Under the pieces are notes generated by a model that saw only the letters and a list, made by a program, of their open reading frames with translations, did no database searches and was not told the origin of the DNA. 64,000 nucleotides of DNA, taken from contig DATEGA010000074.1 in NCBI GenBank assembly GCA_035280345.1, forward strand, positions 6,664 to 70,663. Reading direction: 5' to 3'. A program made the translations under genes and the position numbers. The DNA comes from a bacterium. GTDB lineage: Bacteria > Sysuimicrobiota > Sysuimicrobiia > Sysuimicrobiales > Segetimicrobiaceae. The first letter of the stretch is position 1; every line of letters begins with the position of its first letter. This document shows, piece after piece, positions 8,483-58,698 of this stretch.

Positions 8483-9376
8483 TCATAGGCGCAGCCTCGG
8501 GTCCAGTGCGTCATGCAGTCCGTCCCCAACCAGGTTCACCGCGAGCACGGTCAGCGCGATCGCCACGCCGGGGAACGTGCTGATCCACCATGCGTTTTGG
8601 AGATAGTCGCGTCCCTGCGCAAGAATCAGGCCCCACTCCGGTGTCGGCGGCTGCGCGCCCATGCCGAGGAAGCTGAGTGTGGCGGCCGTCAGGATCGCGA
8701 CGCCGACGTTCAGTGTGCCGAGAATCAGCGCCGGCCCGTAGATATTGGGCAGGATGTGCCGCACGGCAACGCGCGCCTCGCTGCAGCCGCCGGCCCGTGC
8801 CGCCTCCACATAGACGTTCTCGCGGGCGGACAGCACGCAGCCCCGCACGAATCGTGTGAACCGCGGGATGCTGGCGACGCCGACGGCGAGCACGACATTC
8901 GAGAGCGCCGACCCGAGCGCCGCCGCGATCGCGAGCGCAAACAAGAGCGTCGGCACCGCCAGCATGACGTCGACGCCGCGCATGATGACCGTGTCCGCCC
9001 ATCCGCCCCGGTAGCCGCTGATGAGCCCGAAGACTACGCCGCCGGCAAGCGTCAGCGCGCTCGCCGCCAGGCCCACGGCCAGCGAGATTCGCGCGCCCGC
9101 GAGGACGCGGCTGAACAGGTCCCGGCCGATCTCGTCGGTACCCATCCAATGGCGGGAAGCGGGGGCCGCGAACACCTCCTCCGGCGACGGCTGCGTCGGC
9201 GAATACGGGCTCACGAGCGGAGCCAGCAGCGCCGCGGCGGCCACCACCCCGAGCAGCCCCGCCCCGAGCACGGCTTTGCGGTTGCGCCGGAACCGCCGCG
9301 CGACCTGCGTCATGCCTGACCGCGGTGTGGCGGCCGCACCGCCCGGCATGCCGGGAGCGGCCAGCGCTTCAGCCAT
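8483..9376 (-). CDS. ABC transporter permease, DppC/OppC-like
   Basis: Contains HWMGTDEIGRDLFSRVLAGARISL and the EAA-type loop YVEAARAGGCSEARVAVRHILPN. Start is ambiguous: ATG at 9388, 9376 or 9313. ATG 9376 overlaps the upstream stop by 8 nt. Confidence 0.85.
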   Translation of the reverse strand: MAEALAAPGMPGGAAATPRSGMTQVARRFRRNRKAVLGAGLLGVVAAAALLAPLVSPYSPTQPSPEEVFAAPASRHWMGTDEIGRDLFSRVLAGARISLAVGLAASALTLAGGVVFGLISGYRGGWADTVIMRGVDVMLAVPTLLFALAIAAALGSALSNVVLAVGVASIPRFTRFVRGCVLSARENVYVEAARAGGCSEARVAVRHILPNIYGPALILGTLNVGVAILTAATLSFLGMGAQPPTPEWGLILAQGRDYLQNAWWISTFPGVAIALTVLAVNLVGDGLHDALDPRLRL

Positions 9377-10301
9377 GAGCGGCGGCATCCCGGATGCGCG
9401 GATCGAGGTAGCCGTAGGACACGTCCACGAGCATGTTGGCCAGGACGTAGCCGCACGCCGCGACCAGCAGCGCCGACTGCAGCGCGGGATAGTCGCGATA
9501 CGTAATCGACTCGACGATGAGGCGTCCGAGGCCCGGCCGCGCGAACACCGTTTCCACGACGACCGTCCCCGACAGCAGGTTGCCGAGCTCGACGCCCACG
9601 ATCGTGACGACCGGAATCAGCGAGTTGCGCAGCGCGTGCTTGAGCACGACGAGCCGCGGCGGCAGGCCCTTCGCCCGCGCCGTCACGACGAACTCTTGAT
9701 GAAGCGTCTGCACGAGGCTCGACCGCGCGAGCCGGCTGATCACACCGGTGCTGTACAAGCCCAGCGTGACCGCCGGCATGATCAATTGCTGCCAGCCCGA
9801 GCCCGTCGTTACGGGCAGCCACCCCAGCCAGAGCGAGAACACGAAGATCAGCATCAGCGCGAGCCAGAAGCTCGGGATGGACACCCCGGAGAGCGCCGCG
9901 ATCGTGCTGAGGTTGTCGAGCCAGCCGTGAGGACGCAGCGCGGCGAGCGTCCCCAGCGTCACGCCGAGCGCCACGGCAATGCCGAGACCGACAAGCGCGA
10001 GCTCGAGCGTGGACGGCAGGACCTTCTCGATCAGCCGCCCCACCGGCTCGCCGTACCGGATCGAACGGCCCAGCCGGCCCTGGGCGAGCGACCCGAGGCT
10101 GTCCGCGTACTGCCGCCAAAGCGGGCGGTCAAGACCGTACTGGTGGCGCAGCGACTCCAGCTGTGACTTCGAGGCGCTGCCCTCCGAAATCATGAGCGCC
10201 GGATCGGACGGGAGCACGTGCAGCACGATGAAGATCAGCGTGTACACCCCGAGCAGGGCCGGCAGCGTGCTCAGCACGCGCCGGCCCGCGAACTTCAGCA
10301 C
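9369..10301 (-). CDS. ABC transporter permease, DppB/OppB-like
   Basis: 310 aa, GTG start. N-terminus MLKFAGRRVLSTLPALLGVYTLIFIVLHVLPSDP. Contains FVVTARAKGLPPRLVVLKHALRN and ends YGYLDPRIR. Confidence 0.9.
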   Translation of the reverse strand: MLKFAGRRVLSTLPALLGVYTLIFIVLHVLPSDPALMISEGSASKSQLESLRHQYGLDRPLWRQYADSLGSLAQGRLGRSIRYGEPVGRLIEKVLPSTLELALVGLGIAVALGVTLGTLAALRPHGWLDNLSTIAALSGVSIPSFWLALMLIFVFSLWLGWLPVTTGSGWQQLIMPAVTLGLYSTGVISRLARSSLVQTLHQEFVVTARAKGLPPRLVVLKHALRNSLIPVVTIVGVELGNLLSGTVVVETVFARPGLGRLIVESITYRDYPALQSALLVAACGYVLANMLVDVSYGYLDPRIRDAAAHG

Positions 10302-10358
10302 GGCCGTCTAGGGTCGCAGCGGCCCCCCGCGGGATTGGCCTCCGGCGTCGTCACGCCC

Positions 10359-12020
10359 TCACGACTGAAGCCACGCGTCCTGGAAGTAGGGATACCAGGA
10401 CCGCGCGTCCATATGGAAGTCCTTGACCGCCGCGTCCGTCACCCAGACGAACAGTGTGATGTAGATCGGCACCACGTACCCCTGCTCGAGTATGCGGCGG
10501 GTCGCCTTGGAAACGAGGGCGAAGCGCGCCTTCCGGTCGATTGTTGAGTCCTGTTCGGCGAGGAGCTGGTCGAGCTCCGGGTCCTTGTTCATCGCCCAGG
10601 AGAAGCTGCCCACGTTCTTCGACGCGAAAAGATCCACGAGATAGTGCGGGTCGCTCGCTTCGAACTCCCGATTGATCAGATGGTACAGGCCCTTGCTGCC
10701 CGCCACCGTCCGGTCGGCCGGCGTGCCGGCGATCAGTTTGGTCTCGAAGCCGACGGCCTGCAGCATCGTCAGCATCAGCTGCTTGTAATTCTCGGTCATG
10801 AAGCCGCTGGTGAACACGTCCAGGTGCAGCGGCTGGCCGTCCTTCGCACGCACGCCGCTCGGGCCGCGCTTCCAGCCCGCTTCCTCCAGCAGTTGCTTCG
10901 CCTTCTCGGGGTTGAACGAGTACAGGTGGTCGAGCGCCGGGTCATAGCCGAAGCTCGTCGGGCCGATCAGATTCCACGTCGGCCGCGCGAAGCCGGGATA
11001 GAAGACCTTGACGATCGTGTCTTTGCTGATCGCGTAGTTGATCGCCTGCCGGACGGCCGGCTCGTTCGTCGGCGGCTTCTGCGTGTTGATGAAGTTGAAC
11101 CAAGTGGTCCCCGGCGAGACGCCGCGGTACAGCGCGAAGCGCGAGTCGTGCTCCCAGTCCCGGAGGCGCAGCGGGCCGGGCCACGCCTCAATACGCAGTT
11201 CTTTGCGGGCGCTCATCAGTCCGTCGCGTGTACCCTGCTCCGGCACGAACTTGAACGTCAGCTTATCGAGGTGCGGCGGCCCCGCATTCGTCTTGCCGGG
11301 GAATACCGTGCCCCACTTGTAGTTGGGGTTGCGCGCCAGCGTGATAAGCGTGTCGCGCGCCCACTCGACGAACGTGAAGGGCCCCGTACCGACCAGATGG
11401 TTCTGAAAGTCCAGGCCGTACTTCTTCACCGCCGCCGGTGACGGGATGCCGAGATAGCCCTGGCTCAGCGAGTCCCAGATCGGGGCGAACGGCTCCTTCA
11501 GCCGCAGCTGCACCGTGTGGTCATCCATAACCACGGTCGAGTCGTATGGACCGAGCAGCGACTTCGCGTACTGCGACTTCGTCGCCGGATCGACGCAGCG
11601 ATCGAAGTGGAGCTTCACGGCCTCGGCGTTGAAGTCCGTGCCGTCGTGGAACTTCACGCCCGGGCGAAGCTTGAACGTGATTTGCGTGCCGTCTTTGGAC
11701 GCCGTCCACGACGTCGCGAGACCGGGATAGATGTTGAGGTCGTTGCCGAGGTAGACGAGCGAGTCGAAGATCATCTGCGTGACCATCGTCTCGGGCGGAC
11801 CCCAGTAGACGGCCGGATCGAGCTTGTCGAGCGTCCGGTACATGCCGATCGTAAGTTCGCCGCCCGGGCGCGGTGTCTCCGCGGCCGCGGCGGCCGTGCG
11901 CAGCAGCGGCCCGCCGGACTCGCCGAGCGCGGACAGCGGGAGTGCGGATCCCGCGCCGGCCGCGAGTAGTTTGAGCAGCGAGCGGCGCGACAGGTGCGAC
12001 GCCTTACTGTGTTTGGGCAT
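10359..12020 (-). CDS. ABC transporter substrate-binding protein, family 5 (peptide/nickel/opine type), TAT leader
   Basis: 553 aa. Twin-arginine leader HLSRRSLLKLLAAGAGSALPLSALG. Family-5 blocks LDPAVYW, LATSWTASKDGTQITFKLRPGVKFHDGTDFNAEAV and GTGPFTFVEW. Confidence 0.9.
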   Translation of the reverse strand: MPKHSKASHLSRRSLLKLLAAGAGSALPLSALGESGGPLLRTAAAAAETPRPGGELTIGMYRTLDKLDPAVYWGPPETMVTQMIFDSLVYLGNDLNIYPGLATSWTASKDGTQITFKLRPGVKFHDGTDFNAEAVKLHFDRCVDPATKSQYAKSLLGPYDSTVVMDDHTVQLRLKEPFAPIWDSLSQGYLGIPSPAAVKKYGLDFQNHLVGTGPFTFVEWARDTLITLARNPNYKWGTVFPGKTNAGPPHLDKLTFKFVPEQGTRDGLMSARKELRIEAWPGPLRLRDWEHDSRFALYRGVSPGTTWFNFINTQKPPTNEPAVRQAINYAISKDTIVKVFYPGFARPTWNLIGPTSFGYDPALDHLYSFNPEKAKQLLEEAGWKRGPSGVRAKDGQPLHLDVFTSGFMTENYKQLMLTMLQAVGFETKLIAGTPADRTVAGSKGLYHLINREFEASDPHYLVDLFASKNVGSFSWAMNKDPELDQLLAEQDSTIDRKARFALVSKATRRILEQGYVVPIYITLFVWVTDAAVKDFHMDARSWYPYFQDAWLQS

Positions 12021-12058: not shown

Positions 12059-12187
12059 TGACCGCATTCCACGTCACCAGGAGGAGGCCCTGTGCGCGCC
12101 AGGGCAGGAGGCGGCGCGCGCCGGAGGGAACCATCGCGTCTGTCAAGCCCTCGATCGCGCACGCCCACACCAAAAGGAGGAATCGTC

Positions 12188-13882
12188 TTGCCCGAGGATC
12201 GCACCGCGTTTCCCTGGCACGACTACTACGGTCGTGGCCTGATTACCAGGCGGCAGCTCGTCAAGCTGACGGCGATGATCGGTGGGGCCGCCGCGGTGTC
12301 AACGGTCCTGTCCGACTCGAGGCCGGCACACGCGGCACTCGCCCCGGCGGCCAAGCAGGTGCTGCGGTATCCGAACGTTGAGCCGCTGAACTTCGATCCC
12401 GCGACGATGGAGTCGCGGCCGGAGATCCTCGTGGGCATGGCCCTGTTCGATCCACTGCTCACGTTCGACGACAGCGGAACCGCCGTCCCGGTGGCGGCGC
12501 GGTCCTGGAACGTCTCGAAGGATGGGCTGACCTACACTTTCCACCTCCGGTCGGGCATGCAGTGGTCCGACGGTCACCCGGTCCAGGCCTCCGACTACGA
12601 ATACGCGTGGAAGCGCGTCGTGGACCCGGACATCGCCAGCGACTACGCGTCGGCGTTCTACCCGATCAAGGGCGCCCTCGACTACAACAAAGGCAAGACC
12701 AAGGACAAGAACACGATCGCGATCAAAGCCGTCGACGCCCAGACCCTGCGGGTGGGGCTGACCGAGCCGGCGGCGTATTTCCCGCGCCTCGTCTCGACCT
12801 GGAACTACCTGCCCGTACCCCGCTGGTCGGTGGAGAAGAACGGCAAGAAGTGGGTCGACGCCGGCAACCACGTCGGCAACGGCATGTTCATGCTCCAGAA
12901 GTGGGACCACGACCGGGAGATGGTCATCGTCGCCAACCCGCGGTACTGGGGAACGAAGCCGACGCTGCAGCGCGTCGTGTTCACGATCACCGACGACACG
13001 TTCCGCACCAGCCTGCCGGCGTTCGAGAACAACGAGCTCGACCTCACCGATCAGATCCAGCCCGGCGACATCGACCGCGTGCGCAAGGATCCGAAGCTCG
13101 CCGCGCAGCTGCACAAGTACCGGTGGTCCGGCACCGCGATGATGTTCTGTGACACCACGAATCCCGCCTCACCGCTCAGCAAAGCGAGAGTCCGGCAGGC
13201 GTTCTACCTCGCGATCGACCACCAGCGGATCGCGCGGGACGTGCTGCGCGGGATCTACGACCCGGCGCCGACGATCACGCCGCCCGGGACGCTCGGGTAT
13301 CTCTCCACCCCTCCCCTCACGGGCGGTGTCGCGAAAGCGAAGCAGCTTCTGGCCGAAGCGGGCTACCCGGACGGCAAGGGATTCCCGGACATGAAGCTTG
13401 CCTGGCCGAAGCTCGTGACGTACGACCTGCTCGCGCAGGCGATGCAGCAGATGCTGCGCGAGACGCTCAACGTGAACATCACGCTGCAGCGTATGGAGCG
13501 CAAGGAGTATAACGCGGCCTTCAACTCGTGGGGGAAGCAGCCCTACACGGCCTTCATCGACCGCTGGGGGTCGGACTACGAGGACCCGGCCAACTGGGCC
13601 AACATCCTCTTCGACTCGGATCAAGACTTCTTCCACACCCGCTGGAAGAACGCCGAGTACGACAGCCTGGTCCGGAAGGGCTCTGCCGAGGCCGATCCCG
13701 CCAAGCGCCGGCAGCAGTACGAATCGGCGGAACGCATCCTCAATACCGAGCTGCCCGCGATTCCGCTCTACCATCTCGGCGTGATCATTGCGGTCAAGCG
13801 GACAGTTCAAGGGTTCCGGCTTCCGCCGGCCGCCGCGGCCTGGTACGGCACGTTCGGCCGCGTGAAGATTCTGGCCGGGTAA
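12188..13882 (+). CDS. ABC transporter substrate-binding protein, family 5, TAT leader
   Basis: Track ORF 12092..13882 trimmed to the TTG at 12188 (SD AAAGGAGG, 7-nt spacer). Codons 12092-12187 show many A/T third positions, unlike the coding regions. Leader ITRRQLVKLTAMIGGAAAVS...AHA. Contains SWNVSKDGLTYTFHLRSGMQWSDGHPV. Confidence 0.88.
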   Translation: MPEDRTAFPWHDYYGRGLITRRQLVKLTAMIGGAAAVSTVLSDSRPAHAALAPAAKQVLRYPNVEPLNFDPATMESRPEILVGMALFDPLLTFDDSGTAVPVAARSWNVSKDGLTYTFHLRSGMQWSDGHPVQASDYEYAWKRVVDPDIASDYASAFYPIKGALDYNKGKTKDKNTIAIKAVDAQTLRVGLTEPAAYFPRLVSTWNYLPVPRWSVEKNGKKWVDAGNHVGNGMFMLQKWDHDREMVIVANPRYWGTKPTLQRVVFTITDDTFRTSLPAFENNELDLTDQIQPGDIDRVRKDPKLAAQLHKYRWSGTAMMFCDTTNPASPLSKARVRQAFYLAIDHQRIARDVLRGIYDPAPTITPPGTLGYLSTPPLTGGVAKAKQLLAEAGYPDGKGFPDMKLAWPKLVTYDLLAQAMQQMLRETLNVNITLQRMERKEYNAAFNSWGKQPYTAFIDRWGSDYEDPANWANILFDSDQDFFHTRWKNAEYDSLVRKGSAEADPAKRRQQYESAERILNTELPAIPLYHLGVIIAVKRTVQGFRLPPAAAAWYGTFGRVKILAG

Positions 13883-13887
13883 GCACC

Positions 13888-13927
13888 GCGGGACGCCGCG
13901 CCGGTTCCGCCGGGCGCGGCGTCCCGC
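13888..13927 (+). promoter_or_regulatory. Intercistronic stem-loop: 15-bp perfect stem, 10-nt loop, no U-tract
   Basis: GCGGGACGCCGCGCC (13888-13902) pairs perfectly with GGCGCGGCGTCCCGC (13913-13927). Starts 5 nt after the SBP stop and ends 18 nt before the permease GTG. Confidence 0.6.
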
Positions 13928-13945
13928 TCCAATCGTCCCCGCCTC

Positions 13946-14872
13946 GTGGGCGCGTACCTTGTCCGGCGCCTGCTGCTCGCCGTGCCGACGATGGCCGTCG
14001 TCTACACGGCGGCCTTTCTATTGGTGCACGCCACGCCGGGCGGTCCCTGGGACAACGCCGAGAAGCCGCTCGCCCCGCAGGTCATCGAGAACATCCGGCT
14101 CAAGTACCATCTGAACGACCCGCTCTGGAAGCAGTACCTGCTCTACCTGAACGATGCGCTGCACGGCTCGCTCGGCCCGTCGTATGTGAACAGGGCGCGC
14201 GACGTCTCGGAGATCATCGCGGACTTCTTCCCCGTCTCCATACAGCTCGGCGTCATCGCGATGCTGTTTGCGATCGCCGTCGGGATCCCGCTCGGCACCC
14301 TCGCGGCCGTGTACCGCAACACCGCGATCGATTATGCCGCGATCGGGGTGGTCGTCACCGGCATCTCCATCCCCAACTACGTGATGGCGACGATTCTCGT
14401 GACGACGCTCGCGGTGTGGCTGCACTGGCTGCCGACCGGGGGATGGGCGGGAATCTGGGACATCCGGATCATCATTCCCATGGTCGCGATCGGCTTCCGG
14501 CCGGCGACCACGCTCGCCCGCTACCTCCGCACCTCGCTGCTCGAGGTCCTGGGCCAAGACTACATTCGCACGGCGAGGGCCAAGGGGCTGGCGAAGCGCA
14601 AGGTGGTGATCCGGCACGCGCTGCGCAACGCGCTGGTGCCGATCGCCACCATCTCCGGCATTCTCGTCGCCGACGTGATCACCGGGTCGTTTTTCGTCGA
14701 GACCATTACGCGCGTCCCCGGGATCGGCCGCTACTTCGTCACGGCGACGACGGGGCGGGACTATCCGGTGCTGCTCGCCCTGGCGCTGCTGTTCGCGGTG
14801 ATCATCATCACCATGAATATCCTGGTCGATCTCTCGTACGCGGTCCTGGATCCGCAGGTGCGCTATGCCTAA
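13946..14872 (+). CDS. ABC transporter permease, DppB/OppB-like
   Basis: 308 aa, GTG start. N-terminus GAYLVRRLLLAVPTMAVVYTAAFLLVHATPGGP. Contains DYIRTARAKGLAKRKVVIRHALRN and ends YAVLDPQVRYA. Confidence 0.9.
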   Translation: MGAYLVRRLLLAVPTMAVVYTAAFLLVHATPGGPWDNAEKPLAPQVIENIRLKYHLNDPLWKQYLLYLNDALHGSLGPSYVNRARDVSEIIADFFPVSIQLGVIAMLFAIAVGIPLGTLAAVYRNTAIDYAAIGVVVTGISIPNYVMATILVTTLAVWLHWLPTGGWAGIWDIRIIIPMVAIGFRPATTLARYLRTSLLEVLGQDYIRTARAKGLAKRKVVIRHALRNALVPIATISGILVADVITGSFFVETITRVPGIGRYFVTATTGRDYPVLLALALLFAVIIITMNILVDLSYAVLDPQVRYA

Positions 14873-14878
14873 CCGCCC

Positions 14879-15835
14879 GTGAGCACCCTGACGCAGGCCG
14901 GCGCCCCTGCGCGGCGGCCCGCGCGGGAACGGCGGCGCTACCAGCGCGCGTACACCCGATTCAAGCGGCACAAGATGGCCGTGGTCGGCGCCGTATTCCT
15001 CGCGGGCGTGCTCCTGATCGCGGCGGCCGCCCCGATGGTGACGCCGTACGTGTACGATCGTCAGGACCTCTTCTCCACCTACAGCCCCGCCTCGGCGCGG
15101 CACTGGGCCGGGACGGACAGCCTCGGCCGCGATGTGCTGAGCCGCCTCATGTACGGCGCGCGCGTCTCGATGAGCGTCGGGGTCACGACGCTCTTACTGG
15201 TGCTGGCGATCGGGGTGCCGATGGGCCTTACCGCCGGGTATCTCGGCGGCACGTTCGACCTTCTGCTGATGCGGGTCGTGGACGTCGTCTACGCGATCCC
15301 GTACCTGCTGCTCGTCGTATTGCTCCAGACGTTTTTCACGGCGTTTCTCCCCACGGTGCGCGGCGGACCGCTCGTGTGGCTGCGCGCGCTCAACCAAAAT
15401 ACGCACGGCATCGCGGCCATCGTGCTCGCGCTGTCCCTCATTGGCTGGCTCGACGTCGCCCGCATCGTTCGCGGCCAGGTGATTGGCCTGCGCCCGCGGG
15501 AGTTCGTGCAGGCGGCGCGCAGCCTCGGGGCCGGCGACCGCCACATCATGTGGGCGCACCTCCTCCCCAACGTGATGGCGCCGATCATCGTGATGGCGAC
15601 CGTGCTGATCCCGAATTTCATCATCGCCGAGGCGGGGCTGAGCTTCCTCGGATTGGGCGTGCAGCCGCCGCTGCCAAGTTGGGGCACCATGATCGCGGAA
15701 GGCATCGATTCGATCGAGTCGTACCCCCGCCTCGTCATCGCGCCGGCGCTTGTGCTCGCGGCAACGCTGCTCAGCCTCAATTTCGTGGGGGACGGTCTTC
15801 GCGACGCGCTCGATCCGGTGCAAGAGCGCGAGTGA
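14879..15835 (+). CDS. ABC transporter permease, DppC/OppC-like
   Basis: 318 aa, GTG start. Contains HWAGTDSLGRDVLSRLMYGARVSM, EFVQAARSLGAGDRHIMWAHLLPN and GDGLRDALDP. Confidence 0.9.
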   Translation: MSTLTQAGAPARRPARERRRYQRAYTRFKRHKMAVVGAVFLAGVLLIAAAAPMVTPYVYDRQDLFSTYSPASARHWAGTDSLGRDVLSRLMYGARVSMSVGVTTLLLVLAIGVPMGLTAGYLGGTFDLLLMRVVDVVYAIPYLLLVVLLQTFFTAFLPTVRGGPLVWLRALNQNTHGIAAIVLALSLIGWLDVARIVRGQVIGLRPREFVQAARSLGAGDRHIMWAHLLPNVMAPIIVMATVLIPNFIIAEAGLSFLGLGVQPPLPSWGTMIAEGIDSIESYPRLVIAPALVLAATLLSLNFVGDGLRDALDPVQERE

Positions 15836-21114: not shown

Positions 21115-21150
21115 GCCGGTCCCTCCCCGTGGGGCTCCCACCCCGGTTTT

Positions 21151-22047: not shown

Positions 22048-22052
22048 CACGC

Positions 22053-26735: not shown

Positions 26736-26818
26736 CCATTTCCGGGAACGTCCACCGGCCCCTCGCGGCTCGTCGCCAGCGGTGGCGACAGGTCGCGGCG
26801 GTCGGATTGTCGAATGTT

Positions 26819-26832: not shown

Positions 26833-26875
26833 CTCTCACCTGCCTAATGTCTGGAGTTGGGGTGACATCGAGACG

Positions 26876-30170: not shown

Positions 30171-30173
30171 CCG

Positions 30174-41970: not shown

Positions 41971-41984
41971 GCGGCCGCGCGGCG

Positions 41985-47966: not shown

Positions 47967-49010
47967 TTAGTCGCAGGCCGAGAGCTGTTCGGCGATTGCG
48001 GACGAGTACAGAAACGCATTGGGCGCGCCGCCGGTGTGAAGAAACACCACCGCATCCCCCAGCCCGATCACGCCTCGTCGGATTGAGTCCACCAACCCCG
48101 CCCATCCTTTGCCGGTGTAAACGGGGTCCAGCAAGATGCCCTCAGCGCGGGCCGCCTGCACAATCGCGTCCAGGGCGGCGGGCGTCGGGACGCCGTATCC
48201 CGGACCGATATAGCCGTCTGTCACATCCACCTCTTCGTCGGGCACCGAGACGGAGCTCCCGAGAAGTTCGGCCGCGTGCCGCATCTTCTCGATGATCCGG
48301 CGGCGATGTTCCTCCGCGGGCGCGTTGACGGACACGCCCAGCACATGGCAGCTCAACCCCGCCATGCGCAGGCCGAGCAGCAGCCCGGCATGCGTCCCTC
48401 CCGATCCGACCGCCAGCACAACGTGCTCGCAGCGTTCGCGCATCCCGCGGATCTGCCCCGCGAGTTCCGCCGCGCCGTGCACGTACCCGACGGCGCTCAA
48501 GGGACCGGAAAACGTGCCGAGGTGGATTGGGTACGGACATCCGCCGCGCCGGCGTACTTCGTCCTCGATCTCGCGCATGCGGACGAAGGTCGACTCCGCG
48601 TACGGATCGTCCGTCTGCAAGAAGCGCACGTCGGCCCCGAACAGACGCATGAGCAGCAGATTCCCCGCGAGCGGCGCGTCCGGAGCGCCGCGCACGAGCA
48701 AGATGGCCTTCATGCCGACGCGCGCGGTGGCCGCGGCGGTGAGCCTGAGGAAGTTCGATTGGAGTCCGGCGGTGGTGATGATGGTGTCGGCCCCGCGGGC
48801 CCGGGCGTCGCCCAGCAGGAACTCGAGTTTTCGGACCTTGTTGCCGCCCAACCCCAGACCCGTCAAATCGTCCCGCTTTACTAACAATCGTCGGACGCCC
48901 AGTTCGAGGGCCAGCCGCGGCGCGTCGTCCAGCGGCGTCGGAAGCGTCGCGAGCGCGATGCGCGGGAACTGTTTGATGGCGCCGGTCGCAGCAATGGGGT
49001 GGTCACGCAT
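47967..49010 (-). CDS. PLP-dependent ACC deaminase / D-cysteine desulfhydrase family protein
   Basis: Trimmed to the ATG at 49010 (MRDHPIAATGAIKQFPRIALATLPTPL). Contains VKRDDLTGLGLGGNKVRKLEFLL (PLP-lysine motif) and VLAVGSGGTHAGL. Overlaps the upstream stop by 8 nt. Confidence 0.82.
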   Translation of the reverse strand: MRDHPIAATGAIKQFPRIALATLPTPLDDAPRLALELGVRRLLVKRDDLTGLGLGGNKVRKLEFLLGDARARGADTIITTAGLQSNFLRLTAAATARVGMKAILLVRGAPDAPLAGNLLLMRLFGADVRFLQTDDPYAESTFVRMREIEDEVRRRGGCPYPIHLGTFSGPLSAVGYVHGAAELAGQIRGMRERCEHVVLAVGSGGTHAGLLLGLRMAGLSCHVLGVSVNAPAEEHRRRIIEKMRHAAELLGSSVSVPDEEVDVTDGYIGPGYGVPTPAALDAIVQAARAEGILLDPVYTGKGWAGLVDSIRRGVIGLGDAVVFLHTGGAPNAFLYSSAIAEQLSACD

Positions 49011-50505
49011 GCGAGGCCCCTTCTCGTTGCGGATTTGCGCCCGAGCGAGACGGCGCCCCTGCGCCGCGGAGCAGCCGGAGCAACGGCTCGAGATCCGGCA
49101 GACGATCGAAGTCGTTGAGCACAAGATGCACGACCTCGTTTCGCCGGTCCTCGGGCAGCAGTGGTCTGGTCATCTCCATGAACTTGTCGATAAGGTCCGG
49201 TGTCGCGTAATACATCTCCCGCGGCGCCCACATGTCGCCGTACGAGTACTCCGTCGAGCGCCGAAACGTCCGTCCCCGAGCCCTAACCTCGACCTCCGCT
49301 GGGGCGCGCGTGAGGACTTCGGCGATCGACGGCCCCGTCCATGAACGATACGTGATTTCGGTCGTCTGAGGATTACCTTCGATGCGAACCTTCCGCATGA
49401 TTCCGAGGAATGCCGGATCGTCAAGGAGGCGTAAATCGGCCCATCGCGGACCACGTGGGACCCCCGTCAAGGCAAGCGCCACACCGAACTCGGCGCTCAT
49501 GTGCGCTCCCTCCGGCGTTGTCGGCGGCTCGCCGGCGTACGGCCGGTCGGCACCTGCCGGCGCATGCATGCGCAGGATGACCTCCTCGATGTCGCCCGCG
49601 GACAGCCTCTCGTCGCGGCGGAGGGCGGACAAAAGCCACACGTGAGGCCGGTACAAGTTGCAGAGCGGCTCGGACTTGTAATTGAGCCAGCGAATGCTGT
49701 CCCAATCGGACCCCAGTCCCCGCAGGAGATACTCCGGCTCGAAGCGGTCGCTGCCCCAATACTGCGCGAACCCTTCCCGTGAATCGAGCACGCTGGTGTC
49801 GGCCGTATAGCCCTTGGCCGCCAGCAACGCGGCCGTCGCGCCTGCCTGAGCCGTCCATCCCATCGGCGCGTATTTGACCATGGAGAACGGCGTCGCGCGA
49901 AGCCATTGGAGCACACTCGGGACGGGCGCATAGTAGGCGGCCAACCCAAAGGCGTGCGCCATGCGTTCGGCGTCGAGACCGCGCAATCTGCCTGCGCCGG
50001 CCGCGGCCCCGATCGCCCCGTACCCGTAGCCGCACACCGGTCCGACGACATAGCGTGTCCGGGTCCCATCGTAACCTTCGCGCATCGGCGTCATCGCGAG
50101 GGCGAGCCGGCCTGCGATTTCTAGTCCGACGATCGCTGCGTCAAGCACCTGCCGGCCGCTTGCCCCGACCGCTTCGCCGACGGCAAGTACGGCCGGCACA
50201 ATGATCGGCACGATATGCGCGACGTTCAGGAACCCGGCATCGGCGTCCAGGGCGTTTGCCAATTCCCCATTTGCGAAACTCGCGTGGTCCGCACTCACAC
50301 GACGGCCGCCGCCGAGGATTGAGGCCTCCGGTGCACCTCCGAGGTCGGCGGCAAGTTCCACCGCAAGACGGCCTTTGAGGGTCGTCCATCCACCGAGAGC
50401 GCAGCCGATCGTATCGAGAATAAGACGCCTGGCCTCAGGGACGATATCGTCCGGAATCCCCGCGATCTCGGACGCGAACGCCGCCAGCGTCTGTGTGGTG
50501 CTCAT
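49003..50505 (-). CDS. MmgE/PrpD family protein (fourth, more divergent paralogue)
   Basis: 500 aa, SD GAGGTGA. Contains MSTTQTLAAFASEIAGIPDDIVPEARRLILDTIGCALGG. Family-length two-domain layout. Confidence 0.8.
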   Translation of the reverse strand: MSTTQTLAAFASEIAGIPDDIVPEARRLILDTIGCALGGWTTLKGRLAVELAADLGGAPEASILGGGRRVSADHASFANGELANALDADAGFLNVAHIVPIIVPAVLAVGEAVGASGRQVLDAAIVGLEIAGRLALAMTPMREGYDGTRTRYVVGPVCGYGYGAIGAAAGAGRLRGLDAERMAHAFGLAAYYAPVPSVLQWLRATPFSMVKYAPMGWTAQAGATAALLAAKGYTADTSVLDSREGFAQYWGSDRFEPEYLLRGLGSDWDSIRWLNYKSEPLCNLYRPHVWLLSALRRDERLSAGDIEEVILRMHAPAGADRPYAGEPPTTPEGAHMSAEFGVALALTGVPRGPRWADLRLLDDPAFLGIMRKVRIEGNPQTTEITYRSWTGPSIAEVLTRAPAEVEVRARGRTFRRSTEYSYGDMWAPREMYYATPDLIDKFMEMTRPLLPEDRRNEVVHLVLNDFDRLPDLEPLLRLLRGAGAPSRSGANPQREGASHA

Positions 50506-51735: not shown

Positions 51736-52638
51736 CTAATACCGGCCCTGCGGATCGAGATAGTCCCGCAGCGCGTCGCCGAACCATCCGACCACCATGA
51801 CCACGAACGTCAGAAACAGCCCCGGCATCGTCGCGATCCACCAGGCATTGTCAAGGTACTCCCGGCCCTCGCTGATCGTCACGCCCCACGACGGCAGCGG
51901 CCGCGGGATACCGAGCCCGAGAAAACTAAGCGCAGCCTCGGCGAGCATCTGCGCGCCCACCTGGAGGGTCGCGACGATGATGATGGGCGTCAGCATGTTG
52001 GGCAGAATATGGCCCCAAATCACGCGGATGTGCGTCGCGCCCTGGGCGCGCGCCGCCTCGACAAACTGGCTCTCGCGCAACGCGAGCACGGAGCCGTAGG
52101 CGAGGCGCGTAAACACGGCCCAGCGGATGATCGAGAGGGTCAGAATGACGTTGAGCACCGACGGCCCGAGAATCGCGGCGATGAGAATCGCGAGCAACAG
52201 CGCCGGGAACGAGAGCTGCAGGTCGGCGAGCCGCATAATCACCGAGTCGGCCGCGCCGCGGTAGTAGCCGGCGACCAGGCCGAGGGCCGTGCCAGACGCG
52301 CCGGCGAGGACAACCGTGCTCGCGGCAACGAGCATCGAAACCCTGGCCCCGTGCACGACCTGCCCCGCGAGGTCACGGCCGAGCTGGTCCGTGCCGAGCC
52401 ACGCGACCTGTCCGTTGGCAAGCCGAGTGCCCGGCGCCAAGAGATGCTGTTCGAGCCGCAGCGCCACCGGATCGTACGGCACGAGAAACGGCGCTCCCAG
52501 CCCGGCCACCGTCACCGCGGCCAGCAGCGCGCCGGTCCAGAGCAGACGCCGTCCACGCCGGGTGTGCGTCCACGGCCGCGCCGACGCATCCGTTCGTTTC
52601 CGCGATCCGCGCGGCAGCGCCGCCGCGGTGCTCATCAT
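51736..52638 (-). CDS. ABC transporter permease, DppC/OppC-like
   Basis: Track ORF 51736..53076 trimmed to the ATG at 52638 (ATGA overlap). Contains AWLGTDQLGRDLAGQVVHGARVSM, QFVEAARAQGATHIRVIWGHILPN and GDALRDYLDP. Confidence 0.88.
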   Translation of the reverse strand: MMSTAAALPRGSRKRTDASARPWTHTRRGRRLLWTGALLAAVTVAGLGAPFLVPYDPVALRLEQHLLAPGTRLANGQVAWLGTDQLGRDLAGQVVHGARVSMLVAASTVVLAGASGTALGLVAGYYRGAADSVIMRLADLQLSFPALLLAILIAAILGPSVLNVILTLSIIRWAVFTRLAYGSVLALRESQFVEAARAQGATHIRVIWGHILPNMLTPIIIVATLQVGAQMLAEAALSFLGLGIPRPLPSWGVTISEGREYLDNAWWIATMPGLFLTFVVMVVGWFGDALRDYLDPQGRY

Positions 52639-53555
52639 TGGTAGCGGATCCGCGGATCCAGGCACGCGTAGGCGACGTCGGCGGCCAGATTGCTGAGCAC
52701 GAACACCACGGCGGTAAACACCACCGCGGCCTGGACGAGCGGATAATCGCGGTTCTCGATAGCGGTGACGATCAATCGCCCCAACCCGGGCCAGGCGAAT
52801 ACCGTCTCGGTGACCACGACCCCGCCCACCAGCGTTCCGAGCTGCAACCCGATCATCGTGACGACCGGGATCAGCATGTTGCGGTAGATGTGGCGGACGA
52901 GCACGCCGGTCTCGGGGAGACCCTTGGCGCGGGCCGTCCGCGCGAAGTCCTGGCCCGCCATTTCCAGGATCCCCGCACGAGTAAGCCGCGTCAGCAGTCC
53001 GATAAACTGCATCGACAGCGTCACGGCCGGAAGGACGAGATGCCAAAGACCGCCCCGGCCGAACGACGGCAGCCATTTCAAGTCACGGGAGAAGATCAAG
53101 ATCGCCACGAGTCCAAGCCAGAAGTTGGGCGCGGCCTGGGCGACCAGCGACAGCGTTTCGATGAGGCGGTCGAGGACCGAATGCGCCCAGCGCGCGGCAA
53201 CGGACCCCAGCACGAAGCTGGCGGCCACAGAGAGCGTGAGGCTCGCTGCCGCGAGTTCGGTGGTCGCCGGAACCCTCGCCAGAACTAGGCCCATCGCGCC
53301 GGAGCCCTCGTAGTAGGAACGCCCCCAGTCGCCCAGCACGGCCTGGCGCATGAACAAAACGTATTGCACGGCGCGCGGCCGGTTCAGGCCGAGGCGTTCG
53401 CGCTGCTCGGCGATCAGCTGCGGCGTAGCGTAGGTCCCCAGGAGCACGGCCGCCGGATCGCCCGGAAGCACGCGCACGATCAGGAAGATGACCGTGAGCG
53501 CGCCCCACACAACGAGGAGCGCGGCCAACAGGCGCCGGGCGATAAAGCCGCCCAC
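52635..53555 (-). CDS. ABC transporter permease, DppB/OppB-like
   Basis: 306 aa, GTG start. N-terminus GGFIARRLLAALLVVWGALTVIFLIVRVLPGDP. Contains DFARTARAKGLPETGVLVRHIYRN and ends YACLDPRIRYQ. Confidence 0.9.
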   Translation of the reverse strand: MGGFIARRLLAALLVVWGALTVIFLIVRVLPGDPAAVLLGTYATPQLIAEQRERLGLNRPRAVQYVLFMRQAVLGDWGRSYYEGSGAMGLVLARVPATTELAAASLTLSVAASFVLGSVAARWAHSVLDRLIETLSLVAQAAPNFWLGLVAILIFSRDLKWLPSFGRGGLWHLVLPAVTLSMQFIGLLTRLTRAGILEMAGQDFARTARAKGLPETGVLVRHIYRNMLIPVVTMIGLQLGTLVGGVVVTETVFAWPGLGRLIVTAIENRDYPLVQAAVVFTAVVFVLSNLAADVAYACLDPRIRYQ

Positions 53556-53598
53556 TATTGCCGGCGCGGCCCCGTCCGGCTAGCGCACGGCGCCGACG

Positions 53599-55107
53599 CT
53601 ACGGCGAAACCGCGGCGTTGGCAACGCTGAAAATCTCGGCCGGCGGCGCGGTGAAGCCCTGGACGCGCGTCCGGTATGCGTAGCTCTCGAGCGGATCGAA
53701 CAGGAAGACCGCGGGCCCCTGATCCCAGATGATTTCCTGCGCTCGCTTATACATTGCGCATCGCTGTTGGAGGTTCACGGACGCGGCGGCGTCGTCCATC
53801 AGCTTGTCGAACTCCGGATTGGACCAGCCGGTCCGCTTGCTGCGCGTGTGGTACAAGCGACGCAGCGTGAAATCGGGATCGCCGGTGCCGCCGCCCGTCG
53901 TCGCAATCTCGAAGTCCCAGTTCAACTTCAATAGGTCGTCGAGCCAGATCGCGCGGGGCTGCTGCATGTTCCGGACCCGGATGCCGACGAGCGCCAGCTG
54001 CCCGACGATCGCGTCGGAGACCTCGCGCTCCTTCGGGTTGCCCTCGGTCCACTTGATCGACGTGTCAAAGCCGCGCGGGAACCCTGCCTCCGCCAGCAGC
54101 TTGCGGGCCAGCGTCGTGTCGTACGAAATGGACGGCATCTTCGCGTAACAGACGACGTTGGACGCGATCGAGGATGTCGACGGCGTCGCGATCCCGGCGA
54201 CCAAGGAACTGGTGATCGCGTTCACGTTGATCGCGTGCTGCAGCGCGTGCCGCACGCGGACGTCCGTAAACGGCGGCCGCGACGCGTTGATCCACAACGC
54301 CCGGGTCAGCGTCGTCGGGCCAACTTCGACCTTCACGCCCTGGATCGTCCTGAGGCGCTTCATTTCCTCGGGCGGGAGCCCGACCGCAATGTCGATCTCG
54401 CCGGTCTCGACCGCCGTCGCCCGCGCGGCGACCTCGGGGATATCGACGAAGATCAGCCGCTGAGCCTTCGGGACGCCCTGCTGCCAATAGTTCGGGTTGG
54501 CGTCGAGGACGAGGCGCGCGTCCCGGACGAACTCGGTGAACTTAAACGGACCCGTCCCGATCGGGTGGTCGCCAAAATCGGGCGTCGGCGGCGTGCCGGC
54601 AGGGACCATCGCGAGAATGGTCAGGCTGGACAGGAGTGTTCCAACCGGATCCTGCGTCTTGATGATGACCCGGTACGGATCGGGCATCTCAACGGACTGC
54701 ACCGGAGCGAACAGCGGGGCGAGCGGACCCTTCATGGCGATGACCCGCTCGAGCGACGTCTTGACCGACGCGGCCGTGAAGTCGCGGCCGTCGTGGAACT
54801 TCACGCCGCGCCGCAACTCGAACTCCCACGTCGTCGGATCGACGTTTCGCCAGCGCAGCGCCAGTTGCGGCTGAAACTTCTTCGCCGTGTAGTCCCACGA
54901 CACGAGCTGATTGTAGAGGTGCCGGCCGATGATCCACGACATCCGCTCCGCGCCCGCGCTACCGTGCGGATCGAGCGACAGGATCCGCTGCAGGTACGAG
55001 ACGCGGAGGGTGCCCGGCGCCGGAGCGGCCGTCGTCATCCCGGCGCCCAGTCCGACGAGCAGTAGGCCCACGAGCACCACGGCCGCGACTGACCGCCTCA
55101 CCACCAT
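53599..55107 (-). CDS. ABC transporter substrate-binding protein, family 5
   Basis: Track ORF 53599..55557 trimmed to the ATG at 55107 (MVVRRSVAAVVLVGLLLVGLGAG; G-rich SD). Contains LALRWRNVDPTTWEFELRRGVKFHDGRDFTAASV and GTGPFKFTEF. Confidence 0.88.
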   Translation of the reverse strand: MVVRRSVAAVVLVGLLLVGLGAGMTTAAPAPGTLRVSYLQRILSLDPHGSAGAERMSWIIGRHLYNQLVSWDYTAKKFQPQLALRWRNVDPTTWEFELRRGVKFHDGRDFTAASVKTSLERVIAMKGPLAPLFAPVQSVEMPDPYRVIIKTQDPVGTLLSSLTILAMVPAGTPPTPDFGDHPIGTGPFKFTEFVRDARLVLDANPNYWQQGVPKAQRLIFVDIPEVAARATAVETGEIDIAVGLPPEEMKRLRTIQGVKVEVGPTTLTRALWINASRPPFTDVRVRHALQHAINVNAITSSLVAGIATPSTSSIASNVVCYAKMPSISYDTTLARKLLAEAGFPRGFDTSIKWTEGNPKEREVSDAIVGQLALVGIRVRNMQQPRAIWLDDLLKLNWDFEIATTGGGTGDPDFTLRRLYHTRSKRTGWSNPEFDKLMDDAAASVNLQQRCAMYKRAQEIIWDQGPAVFLFDPLESYAYRTRVQGFTAPPAEIFSVANAAVSP

Positions 55108-55297: not shown

Positions 55298-56899
55298 ATG
55301 CTCGTACCGAACGGATCGGGATGGCGTTCCGCGCTGGCGGCGGCCGCGGTCGTTCTTGTGGCATCGACCGTTTCCGTGGGGGCCCCGGCGGCCCCTGCAC
55401 CGGGTGGCACGTTGACGCTCGGAATTCGCCAGGAGCCGAGCACAACCGATCCGCACGCGTCCGCCAACGGAGTGTCGCAGAGAGTGCTCGCGCATCTGTA
55501 CGACGGCCTCGTGTATATGACCCCGGACGGCGCGTACCACCCGTGGCTGGCCACCAAGTGGACGATCGCCCCGGACGGAATGACCTACACGCTGACGCTC
55601 CGCTCGGGGGTAAAGTTCCACGACGGCACGCCGTTCAATGCCACGGCCGTGAAGGTCAGTCTCGACCGCATTATCGATCCGGCCACGCGGTCCACTTCCG
55701 CGATTTCCGCGATCGGACCGTATGCCTCGAGTGAAGTGGTCGATGCGTCCACGATTCGCGTGCATCTCAAGGAGCCGTACAGTCCGTTCATCAACGCGCT
55801 GAGCCAGCCGTGGCTGGGCATCGTCTCACCGACGACCGTCAAGAGCTGGGGCCGGGATTTCGCCCAGCATCCCGTGGGCACAGGGCCGTTCAAGTTCGTG
55901 GAGATGGTTCCGCAAGACCACATCACGCTGGTGCGCAACGCTGACTACGCGTGGCCGCCCTCCGCCGGGAAAGCGCACTCCGGTCCCGCGTATCTGGAGC
56001 GCCTCGTGATCCGGACGGTCCCCGAAGATTCGACCCGGCTCGCCACCCTCCAGAACGGAGAGACGAATCTCATCGAGCCGCTGCCCGAACAAAACGTGGC
56101 CCAGGTCCAGGGCGACCCGAGCCTGTATGTGCTCAAGCAACTCGAGATGGGCGCGGGCCGCGTGGTACTCTTGAACACCCAGCGCGCGCCCACGAACGAC
56201 GTGCGGGTGCGCCGGGCGATTGAATTCGGGGTTGACACCGCGACACTCGTGAAAACGCTGTTTTACGGGCAGCACGTGGTGGGGCGATCGCCGGTGTCGC
56301 CGGTCATGCCCGGCTACGACAAGAGTCTCGAACGCATCTACACGTACGACCCGACAAAGGCCCGCCAGCTCCTGGACGAAGCGGGCTGGCGGCCCGGCCA
56401 GGGCGGCGTTCGCTTCAAGGATGGACAACCGCTCCGGATGAGCCTCTTCATCATTCCCAACATCGGGTCGGAGCCAACGGCCGAATACCTCCAGTCGCAA
56501 CTCCGGCAGATCGGCATTGACCTGGAGATCCGGGCGCTGGCCCGCGCCGCATGGTATGAGGGCATTAACCGGGGAGACCACAACCTCACGCTGGCGTTCT
56601 TCATCTGGCCCGACCCCGACATGCTGCGCACGCTCTATTTCTCGACCAACATCCCGTTCAACTGGTTCCACTACAACAACCCGGAGGTCGACCGGATGCT
56701 GGTGCAGGCCAACCGACTCACCGACATGCGGGCACGCATCAACCTCTACCGTCAAGTGATGCGGAAGGTTATGGACGATGCGCTCCCCCTCACCCTGTAT
56801 TATGAGAACAACATCCTTGCCGCCCGGCGCACGCTGCAGGGCGTCAAGTTCGATGCGGTGGGATACCCGCTGTTCTATGACGCCTACATCACGCGGTGA
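55298..56899 (+). CDS. ABC transporter substrate-binding protein, family 5
   Basis: Track ORF 54929..56899 trimmed to the ATG at 55298 (SD GAGAGGAG). Leader MLVPNGSGWRSALAAAAVVLVASTVSVGA. Contains LATKWTIAPDGMTYTLTLRSGVKFHDGTPFNATAV and GTGPFKFVEM. Confidence 0.88.
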   Translation: MLVPNGSGWRSALAAAAVVLVASTVSVGAPAAPAPGGTLTLGIRQEPSTTDPHASANGVSQRVLAHLYDGLVYMTPDGAYHPWLATKWTIAPDGMTYTLTLRSGVKFHDGTPFNATAVKVSLDRIIDPATRSTSAISAIGPYASSEVVDASTIRVHLKEPYSPFINALSQPWLGIVSPTTVKSWGRDFAQHPVGTGPFKFVEMVPQDHITLVRNADYAWPPSAGKAHSGPAYLERLVIRTVPEDSTRLATLQNGETNLIEPLPEQNVAQVQGDPSLYVLKQLEMGAGRVVLLNTQRAPTNDVRVRRAIEFGVDTATLVKTLFYGQHVVGRSPVSPVMPGYDKSLERIYTYDPTKARQLLDEAGWRPGQGGVRFKDGQPLRMSLFIIPNIGSEPTAEYLQSQLRQIGIDLEIRALARAAWYEGINRGDHNLTLAFFIWPDPDMLRTLYFSTNIPFNWFHYNNPEVDRMLVQANRLTDMRARINLYRQVMRKVMDDALPLTLYYENNILAARRTLQGVKFDAVGYPLFYDAYITR

Positions 56900-56917
56900 C
56901 CGGCTCGCCCGTGCGCG

Positions 56918-57844
56918 ATGACGTCGTACGCGGCACGGCGGGTACTGTCCACGCTGCCCGTGCTGGCCGGAATTACCGTGTTTGTGTTCTTGATGCTGCA
57001 CCTCGTCCCCGGAGATCCGGTGGTACTGCTGCTCGGGGAAGGCGGTGTCGCCTCTCCCGAGGCGATGAACGCGCTTCGCCATGAGCTCGGCCTGACCGAC
57101 CCGCTCCCGCTGCAATTTGTCCGTTACGCCCGCGACATGGCCCGCGGCAATTGGGGCCGGTCGATTCGCTTCAACCGGCCGGTCCTGGCGCTGCTGATCG
57201 AAAACGGACGGTACACCATCGAGCTCGCCGCCGCCGCCCTCGTGATCGCCGTCGCCGCCGGCGTGTCGCTCGGGATCCTCGCCGCCGTCCAGCGTACGGG
57301 ATGGGGAGACAGCGTAGCGATGTTCGTGTCGCTCGTCGGCGTCTCGATGCCCAGCTTTTGGCTCGGGGCGCTCCTGATCTTCGCGTTCTCGTTGCACTTC
57401 CGATGGTTCCCGGCCATCGGGCAGGGCGGGTTGAACCGGCTCGTGCTGCCGGGCTTCGCGCTGGCATTCGCCCCCATGGCGAGCCTCGCGCGTCTGGTCC
57501 GAAGCAGTCTGCTGGAGACGTTCGGCGAGGATTATGTGCGCACGGCGCGGGCGAAGGGCGTGGCCGAACCGGCGGTCGTGATGCGGCACGCGTTTCGCAA
57601 CGCGTTGATCCCGGTCGTCACGTTCTTCGGCCTCGAGATGGGCCGGCTGCTGGCCGGCGCCTTTGTCGTTGAAACCGTGTTTTCTCGTATCGGCTTGGGG
57701 CGAACGATCGTCAATGCCATCTTGAACAAGGACTTTCCCGTGGTGCAGGGCGCGGTGCTGTTCGTCGCGGTGTTGTACGTCGCCGTTAATCTGGCCGTCG
57801 ACCTGTCGTACGCGGTGCTCGATCCGCGCGTACGCTTCGAGTGA
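56918..57844 (+). CDS. ABC transporter permease, DppB/OppB-like
   Basis: 308 aa. N-terminus MTSYAARRVLSTLPVLAGITVFVFLMLHLVPGDP. Contains DYVRTARAKGVAEPAVVMRHAFRN and ends YAVLDPRVRFE. Confidence 0.9.
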   Translation: MTSYAARRVLSTLPVLAGITVFVFLMLHLVPGDPVVLLLGEGGVASPEAMNALRHELGLTDPLPLQFVRYARDMARGNWGRSIRFNRPVLALLIENGRYTIELAAAALVIAVAAGVSLGILAAVQRTGWGDSVAMFVSLVGVSMPSFWLGALLIFAFSLHFRWFPAIGQGGLNRLVLPGFALAFAPMASLARLVRSSLLETFGEDYVRTARAKGVAEPAVVMRHAFRNALIPVVTFFGLEMGRLLAGAFVVETVFSRIGLGRTIVNAILNKDFPVVQGAVLFVAVLYVAVNLAVDLSYAVLDPRVRFE

Positions 57845-58698
57845 CGGCGCCGGCGCCGAGCGGGGCGCGAGGGACCGTATGGCAACGCATCCGCCGGCAT
57901 CCCCACATGGTGGCCGGCGGCTCGGTCTTTCTGGCCCTCGTGCTTCTCGCCGTCGCCGCCCCGATCGTCGCCGACGCGGATCTCTACTTAATGCAGCCGC
58001 AGGACGCGCTCCGGCCGCCCTCGCAGCGGCATTGGTTCGGAACCGACGAGTTCGGCCGCGATCTCTTCACGCGCGTCGTGCACGGCGCGCGCCTATCGCT
58101 CAGTGTCGGCGTGGTCGCCGTCGGCATCGCCTGCGGACTCGGCGTCGCCGTCGGCCTGGCGTCCGGATACTACGGCGGCTTTCTGGACCTCGGTCTGATG
58201 CGCCTGGTGGATCTGATGCTCGCGTTTCCTGGGATTCTACTGGCCCTCGCCATCGTCGCGATTCTCGGTCCGGGACTGACCAACGCGATGATCGCCGTCG
58301 GCATTACCGGAATTCCCTCGTATGCGCGAGTCGTCAGGGGCGCGGTGCTTCAAGCCAAAGCGTTCCCGTACGTCGAGGCCGCCCGCGCGGTTGGCGTCCC
58401 CTCGCGGGTGATTCTCGTCCGCCACGTCCTCCCGAACGTCGCGGCGCCGATCATCGTCCTCTCGACACTGAACATGGCCGCGGCGATTCTCACCGCGGCC
58501 GCACTGAGCTTTCTCGGGCTTGGCGCGCAGCCCCCACAGCCGGAGTGGGGTGCCTTGCTCAACGCCGGCCGAAACTGGCTTCAGCGCGCGTGGTGGTTAA
58601 CGACCTTTCCCGGACTGGCGATCATGGTGACGGTGTTGGCAATCAATACGCTGGGAGACGGGCTTCGGGACGTCCTCGATCCCCGACTAAAGGGGTGA
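57841..58698 (+). CDS. ABC transporter permease, DppC/OppC-like
   Basis: 285 aa, GTGA overlap. Contains HWFGTDEFGRDLFTRVVHGARLSL, PYVEAARAVGVPSRVILVRHVLPN and GDGLRDVLDPRLKG. Confidence 0.9.
   Translation: MTAPAPSGARGTVWQRIRRHPHMVAGGSVFLALVLLAVAAPIVADADLYLMQPQDALRPPSQRHWFGTDEFGRDLFTRVVHGARLSLSVGVVAVGIACGLGVAVGLASGYYGGFLDLGLMRLVDLMLAFPGILLALAIVAILGPGLTNAMIAVGITGIPSYARVVRGAVLQAKAFPYVEAARAVGVPSRVILVRHVLPNVAAPIIVLSTLNMAAAILTAAALSFLGLGAQPPQPEWGALLNAGRNWLQRAWWLTTFPGLAIMVTVLAINTLGDGLRDVLDPRLKG

Follow-up and report, generated by a model that had tools for sequence, protein, structure and literature searches.

The 64,000-nucleotide stretch of DNA analysed here, from an uncultured soil bacterium (the window, C74:6664-70663), carries seven Dpp/Opp-type ATP-binding cassette (ABC) importer modules, each with genes for one family-5 substrate-binding protein (SBP), one DppB-type permease and one DppC-type permease, and none with a gene for an ATPase. 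The 82,253-bp contig C74 belongs to a 3.66-Mb metagenome-assembled genome (MAG) with 321 contigs, 91% completeness and ~67% G+C. In this genome, ATPase-less cassettes of this type greatly outnumber the ATPase genes that could serve them, and we conclude, with a probability of roughly 75%, that the cassettes are energised in trans by DppD/DppF heterodimers encoded elsewhere.

Domains were called by six-frame Pfam searches of the whole genome, and individual genes were confirmed by hmmscan. In the window, these searches returned seven SBP_bac_5 matches (E 1e-78 to 1e-92), seven BPD_transp_1_N (DppB-type) matches and six OppC_N matches; the families of the module 6 SBP and the module 3 DppB were confirmed by hmmscan. 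The seventh DppC, in module 6, matches BPD_transp_1, with OppC_N undetectable. An initial annotation of the sequence had placed seven SBP-DppB-DppC modules between positions 8483 and 58698, and the genome-wide search found all of them there with the expected composition. Two layouts had to be corrected, as module 3 runs in the order DppB-DppC-SBP and module 4 contains an extra gene for an AstE/AspA-type deacylase. The modules are as follows (window coordinates).

Module 1, 8483-12020, minus strand: SBP 10359-12020 (Tat-type signal), DppB 9369-10301, DppC 8483-9388
Module 2, 12092-15835, plus strand: SBP from 12092 or 12188 (start ambiguous) to 13882, DppB 13946-14872, DppC 14879-15835
Module 3, 19471-22982, minus strand: DppB 22053-22982, DppC 21151-~22050, SBP 19471-21141
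Module 4, 27647-31940, plus strand: SBP 27647-29185, AstE/AspA-type deacylase 29199-30170, DppB 30174-31091, DppC 31095-31940
Module 5, 35191-38552, plus strand: SBP 35191-36702, DppB 36730-37647, DppC 37644-38552
Module 6, 51736-55107, minus strand: SBP 53599-55107, DppB 52635-53555, DppC 51736-~52640 (BPD_transp_1 only)
Module 7, 55298-58698, plus strand: SBP 55298-56899, DppB 56918-57844, DppC 57841-58698

The frames of all 21 module genes are open and normal in length, and each of the seven SBPs carries a signal peptide of the Tat or Sec type. EAA coupling loops are present in both permeases, with the consensus D[YF][IV]RTARAKGL..V..RHALRNALIPVVT in DppB and E[YF]V.AARA.G...I..RH.LPN in DppC. 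The modules thus have the family-5 SBP, the DppB-type and DppC-type permeases and the EAA loops of the PepT family (TC 3.A.1.5), but their operons lack the two genes for DppD/F ATPases (ABC_tran with oligo_HPY). Judged by their SBP and permease components, they are PepT members that are incomplete as operons.

Searching the entire contig C74 for ABC_tran (PF00005) yielded a single match (C74:48741-49166, window 42078-42503), and no NBD (nucleotide-binding domain) open reading frame (ORF) was found inside or between the seven modules; oligo_HPY had no match on the contig. The one match lies in the gene at 41940-43064, confirming that the only NBD in the window is PotA-like and comes with its own fused permease.

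The initial annotation had called for a genome-wide count of DppD/F-type genes against permeases, which gave the following numbers.

SBP_bac_5: ~67
BPD_transp_1_N (DppB-type): 55
OppC_N (DppC-type): 48 detected
oligo_HPY (DppD/F C-terminal domain): 9
ABC_tran: ~100

Nine DppD/F-type genes therefore stand against 55 DppB-type genes. The nine comprise four pairs in complete operons (on contigs C90, C241, C285 and C314) and a lone truncated gene on C37. In a tree of 97 NBD domains, exactly the nine genes with oligo_HPY group into a single DppD/F clade (support 0.99), which leaves no apparent DppD/F-like ATPase hidden in the genome without this domain. A protein search with the C90 DppD at E<=1e-40 recovered the same nine genes. 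A dedicated DppD/F pair elsewhere for each module can be ruled out, as ~100 more ATPase genes would be needed. When we inspected the neighbourhoods of all 55 DppB genes, 36 with at least 2.2 kb of downstream contig had no DppD/F, four adjoined a DppDF pair and 15 were cut by contig ends. The number of cassettes without an ATPase gene is thus 36 verified and up to 51.

These genes show no sign of decay. All 55 DppB and all 48 DppC frames are full length. Compared with orthologues in four related MAGs (74-87% identity), the SBP, DppB and DppC of module 2 gave ratios of non-synonymous to synonymous substitution rates (dN/dS) of 0.12-0.25; module 2 is under purifying selection. With intact frames and these ratios, the possibility that the permeases are decayed pseudogenes finds no support. 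The gene inventory, the intactness of the genes and the selection on module 2 are direct observations, and so is the imbalance between permeases and ATPases across the lineage.

We searched 24 related MAGs, of 86-100% completeness (several at 96-98%) and some of them long-read assemblies with contigs >1 Mb, together with two control genomes. DppB to oligo_HPY ratios were as follows.

This genome: 55:9
Same genus, 4 MAGs: 51:6, 36:4, 60:8 and 61:5
Same family, 11 MAGs: 9:4 to 81:20
Order outside this family, 9 MAGs: 4:4 to 37:9
Sporomusa rhizae (control): 10:19
Chloroflexia MAG G007 (control): 9:16

The imbalance was seen in 24 of 24 relatives, with about 15-24 permease pairs for each ATPase pair in the genus and 4-21 in the family, compared with near one permease pair per ATPase pair in the two controls. 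DppD/F did not follow DppC in any of 49 loci from close relatives and Thermomicrobiales (L001-L049); one of these (L041) has a DppDF pair located upstream, ~3 kb from the SBP gene. Among 31 distant homologous loci, mostly from Firmicutes (L050-L080), DppD/F directly follows DppC in 26, is absent in four and is cut off by a contig end in one, in keeping with the premise that canonical operons place two NBD genes after the permeases.

A proof of principle comes from the Chloroflexia MAG G004 (5.3 Mb), which has 27 DppB-type genes and exactly two DppD/F-type genes. The two form one pair (L081, G004:C1:710000-728000) within a block of genes for an aldolase, an aminotransferase IV, a family-5 SBP, DppD, DppF and an M50 protein, and no Dpp-type permease lies within 8 kb of the pair. 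Because 27 DppB genes face one DppDF pair, every PepT permease pair of G004, as judged from its gene content, must use this single pair or be inactive.

With no hidden NBD, no dedicated pair per module and no pseudogene decay, supply of the ATPase in trans would be the sole reading that keeps >50 selected, intact cassettes functional. The earlier proposal that the 14 PepT permease genes of the window must use NBDs encoded in trans is supported by the contig-wide absence of a matching NBD, the nine DppD/F genes genome-wide and the intact frames. In the mechanism that we propose, each cassette would provide one family-5 SBP and a DppB/DppC permease heterodimer within its own catabolic cluster, and DppD/DppF heterodimers made from other loci would dock onto these permeases and energise them. 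Because only four DppDF pairs are available for at least 55 permease pairs, one ATPase pair would have to dock onto many different permease pairs, as a heterodimeric counterpart of the MsiK, MsmX and MsmK multitask ATPases of CUT1 sugar importers. Docking, energisation in trans and the identity of the shared pair are what we infer from sequence. That one common NBD pair serves many of the importers, as first suggested, is plausible.

A shared ATPase might be expected to leave a mark on the docking surface of the permeases, and the initial annotation had suggested aligning the coupling helices. Using a 31-residue window around the EAA loop, we found that the 51 ATPase-less DppBs have a mutual identity of 60% in the loop and 38% elsewhere (per-gene loop means 0.47-0.68), compared with 42-49% loop identity in paralogues with their own ATPases, a control of 11 genes only. 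Against the ATPase-less set, the loop of the C90 operon DppB has an identity of 0.60, that of the C285 DppB 0.50 and that of the C241 DppB 0.37. Every loop that clearly deviates (0.36-0.50) belongs to a system with its own ATPases: C241, C285, L088 and L089 out of five paralogues in Sporomusa, and L090 and L091 out of three in G007; a further Sporomusa paralogue (L086) is intermediate at 0.53. The ATPase-less cassettes never drift from the generic DppB loop, which fits sharing without proving it.

Among the four pairs, the C90 DppDF is our best candidate for a shared hub, tentatively and at somewhat less than even odds, because of its conservation, synteny, position in the trees, adjacent ATPase-less cassette and consensus EAA loop. 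The locus reads SBP-DppB-DppC-X-DppD-DppF-SBP-DppB-DppC-SBP, such that an ATPase-less cassette directly follows DppDF, and its synteny is kept in five relatives. For the C90 DppD, identity reaches 93-94% within the genus and 84% within the family, and the single DppD of G004 matches it at 58%. In trees of both subunits, the C90-type DppD and DppF each branch beside the G004 pair. Other DppDF pairs may be promiscuous too. In a more specific version, one C90-type heterodimer, maybe with the product of ORF X, would be the hub ATPase that energises most of the >50 PepT permease pairs, and a sister pair would do likewise in Thermomicrobiales-like Chloroflexota; this is possible, although we would bet against it.

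ORF X itself encodes 200 amino acids between the C90 dppC and dppD genes, starting directly after the dppC stop (L101:4558-5160, corresponding to G000 C90:10057-10659). Its product has one predicted transmembrane helix and no Pfam match, is single copy in the genome and occurs at the same position in four relatives with 59-68% identity; it may serve the candidate hub transporter as an accessory subunit. An Rfam scan of the C90 dppC-dppD interval gave no match (best E 0.35), and a scan of the dppC-dppF stretch for sigma-70 promoters and terminators gave no usable signal.

Several points weigh against sharing of DppD/DppF between cassettes. All four DppDF pairs sit in complete operons adjoining DppB and DppC, unlike the orphan gene msiK. 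The same consensus loop is found in many Firmicutes DppBs that have ATPases of their own, with an identity of 0.51-0.66 to the ATPase-less set; the loop control set is small, and the DppC EAA loop gave no signal. The expectation of a shared docking surface thus stood only in that the DppB loop is conserved; the conservation reflects a general DppB consensus and is not specific to sharing, and we rejected the loop as a specific signature of shared docking on account of the Firmicutes DppBs. A single ATPase pair for 10-25 permease pairs also raises problems of stoichiometry and competition, and full-text literature searches aimed at trans-acting, shared or orphan DppD/F or OppD/F ATPases turned up none. 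Finally, the MAG is fragmented and incomplete, and 15 modules end at contig breaks.

This last point leads to the explanation that the imbalance is an artefact, with the missing ATPase genes unassembled or placed on other contigs. The contig number, the completeness and the 15 DppB genes at contig ends would be in its favour. However, the ~100 further NBD genes would all have to be missing, full downstream context is visible for 36 cassettes, the window contig alone holds seven, and the same ratios recur in the 96-98% complete relatives and in long-read MAGs. The artefact is largely refuted, and we give it hardly any chance. Alternatively, the cassettes might do without ATP-driven transport, either as relics nearing loss or as SBP-permease units reused for sensing, signalling or passive facilitated uptake. 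The lack of an ATPase gene in cis would suit this idea, but the full-length frames, the low dN/dS of all three module 2 genes, the retention of cassette orthologues across genera and even phyla, and the tight embedding of the cassettes in catabolic operons do not; moreover, the EAA loop, which has no known role other than NBD docking, is in consensus form in 51 of 51 ATPase-less DppBs. We consider a non-transport role quite improbable.

Another class of ABC ATPase could also drive the DppBC pairs, be it the DppD-like NBD on C37, a MalK/MsiK-like NBD or other NBDs unlinked to permeases. The genome has ~100 ABC_tran domains to draw on, the lone DppD-clade NBD on C37 lacks oligo_HPY and is kept in relatives, and C308 encodes a MalK-like NBD with OB_MalK and TOBE_2 domains. 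Yet in characterised PepT systems, DppB/C-type permeases are known to pair with DppD/F-type NBDs, and the C37 gene heads its own operon with a CUT1-like SBP and permease, making this alternative unlikely as a whole. For the same reason, being the first gene of that CUT1-like operon, the C37 NBD is unlikely to be a hub. Energisation by DppD/DppF heterodimers from other loci remains our preferred reading.

The C37 gene deserves mention in its own right. The NBD (L102:638-4180, corresponding to G000 C37:10137-13679) falls in the DppD/F clade without the oligo_HPY C-terminal domain and has homologues in G010, G012 and G021. In its operon, the NBD comes first, followed by a CUT1-like SBP (SBP_bac_1/8) and a MalF-like permease, and genes for a resistance-nodulation-division efflux pump lie just upstream. 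A DppD-type ATPase paired with CUT1-type membrane parts would be unusual.

The canonical DppABCDF, OppABCDF and NikABCDE systems of Escherichia coli, Bacillus subtilis and others are built from the same component families and have the consensus EAA loop, and the C90, C241, C285 and C314 loci keep this full layout. Canonical systems each encode two ATPases in cis; such genes are missing from all seven modules of the window and from at least 36 modules across the genome. Sharing of other kinds is known in this family: Borrelia OppA1-5 and E. coli MppA are binding proteins that share one core, in the latter case OppBCDF. Likewise, in Pseudomonas aeruginosa, several binding proteins (DppA1-A5) work with one BCDF core (PMC4206461), such that one ATPase pair serves several specificities. 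There, the whole B, C, D and F complex is common and the SBP varies; here, by contrast, each cassette has its own permease pair, and the ATPase dimer alone would be shared. Staphylococcus aureus FhuC similarly serves several iron and heme importers as one ATPase (PMC10147376) and thus acts on several permeases outside CUT1, but these are type II importers and the partners are few, unlike the PepT type I importers and the dozens of partners proposed here.

The closest parallel is with MsiK (Streptomyces), MsmX (B. subtilis) and MsmK (Streptococcus pneumoniae), which likewise come with many operons for an SBP and two permeases that have no ATPase gene, so that substrate-specific cassettes are separate from a common energising subunit. 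The CUT1 module of the window fits this known pattern. According to a 2020 study, multitask ATPases had until then been reported exclusively in CUT1 importers, and MsmX and MsmK, as cited there, each serve six or seven systems (PMC7658222); FhuC is a later example. This restriction and the lack of any DppD/F report in the literature searched bear out the remark in the initial annotation that sharing is not well described for Dpp/Opp-type systems; a paper on the expansion of Dpp/Opp genes in Devosia is silent on the number of ATPases. As expected for a multitask ATPase, several SBP-permease operons without an ATPase gene occur in one genome. A DppDF pair unlinked to a permease is absent here and present in G004. 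The MsiK/MsmX-type enzymes are MalK-type homodimers from a single orphan gene that act on CUT1 permeases, whereas the permeases here are of the PepT type and the candidate is a DppD/DppF heterodimer with oligo_HPY domains, encoded by two genes inside a complete operon. At 12-24 permease pairs per ATPase pair, the ratio in the genus is also higher than the number of systems served by MsmX or MsmK.

The sharing of ATPases has so far been regarded as something particular to CUT1 sugar importers. If DppD/F pairs do routinely serve 10-25 permease pairs, recognition between ATPase and permease in PepT systems would be far looser than the one-operon-one-transporter picture allows. Counts of 'complete' peptide transporters in MAG-based reconstructions would then be systematically wrong for these abundant soil lineages, including Thermomicrobiales, and a single ATPase pair would be a possible global control point of heterotrophic uptake. 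If the hub were indeed one pair, the PepT family would gain its first multitask ATPase, which would also be the first heterodimer of this kind, and uptake of dozens of organic substrates would be gated by it.

In a rough FastTree phylogeny, the ATPase-less DppBs are scattered among operon-encoded DppBs from other genomes, and the ATPase-less state therefore spans several PepT subfamilies. A single recent duplication burst as the whole origin of the cassettes was rejected on the same grounds. Soil MAGs supplied the closest homologues of a window permease, at 80-87% amino-acid identity; in GenBank these MAGs are labelled 'Bacillati bacterium ANGP1', 'Bacillota bacterium Centralia_MAG' and 'uncultured Firmicutes'. 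Beyond its own lineage, the module 2 cassette (query 13946-14872) is 50-67% identical to sequences from Thermomicrobiales/Chloroflexia MAGs (L011-L047) and 42-46% to those from Firmicutes. This Chloroflexota-like affinity suggests either that soil lineages have exchanged ATPase-less cassettes or that the taxonomic placement is uncertain.

Every module is embedded in a catabolic cluster. Module 1 is the head of a minus-strand operon with genes for an M20 peptidase, three MmgE/PrpD proteins, an ornithine cyclodeaminase (OCD), an Amidohydro_2 protein and a second M20 peptidase. Module 2 is followed by a UDG-like gene and no NBD. Module 3 is flanked by GFO/IDH/MocA, aldo-keto reductase, amine oxidase, polysaccharide deacetylase and short-chain dehydrogenase/reductase genes, and a GntR/FCD regulator gene (26807-27580) lies upstream of module 4. 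After module 5 come an Amidohydro_1 gene (38555-39766) and a second AstE/AspA-like gene (39844-40842), and after module 6 enolase-superfamily, MmgE/PrpD, PALP and RraA-like genes. M24 peptidases are also found among the neighbours. Because these clusters are so varied, the cassettes look like specialised importers for varied small organic compounds. As substrates, the neighbouring genes suggest a range of small N-acylated, peptide-like or acid-sugar compounds, not peptides alone, and the two AstE/AspA-type genes (succinylglutamate desuccinylase/aspartoacylase) hint at N-acyl amino acids.

The four MmgE/PrpD paralogues of the window (2872-7089 and 49003-50505) are diverged from one another, and three of them stand in tandem downstream of module 1. 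The cluster of MmgE/PrpD, OCD, Amidohydro_2 and two M20 genes looks like an undescribed catabolic pathway that would be fed by this importer. Between modules 4 and 5, positions 31974-35150 encode a 1058-amino-acid protein with Sortilin-Vps10 and BNR/Asp-box repeats, which may be a glycosidase-like or binding protein tied to the substrate of either importer.

Two further importers complete the window.

PotA-like system, 40879-44788, plus strand: SBP_bac_8/6 40879-41970, NBD with TOBE_2 41940-43064, fused double permease 43061-44788
CUT1-type module, 59007-62234, minus strand: SBP_bac_1/8 60825-62234, BPD_transp_1 permeases 59873-60811 and 59007-59876, NBD absent

The PotA-like system is the sole complete ABC importer of the window and is not of the Dpp/Opp type. 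For the CUT1-type module, the earlier reading that it too lacks an NBD holds, with no ABC_tran match there. The MalK/MsiK-like NBD on C308 is a candidate shared ATPase for it. Next to the module, two genes for inosine-uridine nucleoside hydrolases stand in tandem (62197-63180 and 63304-63996), a hint that it takes up nucleosides or ribose conjugates.

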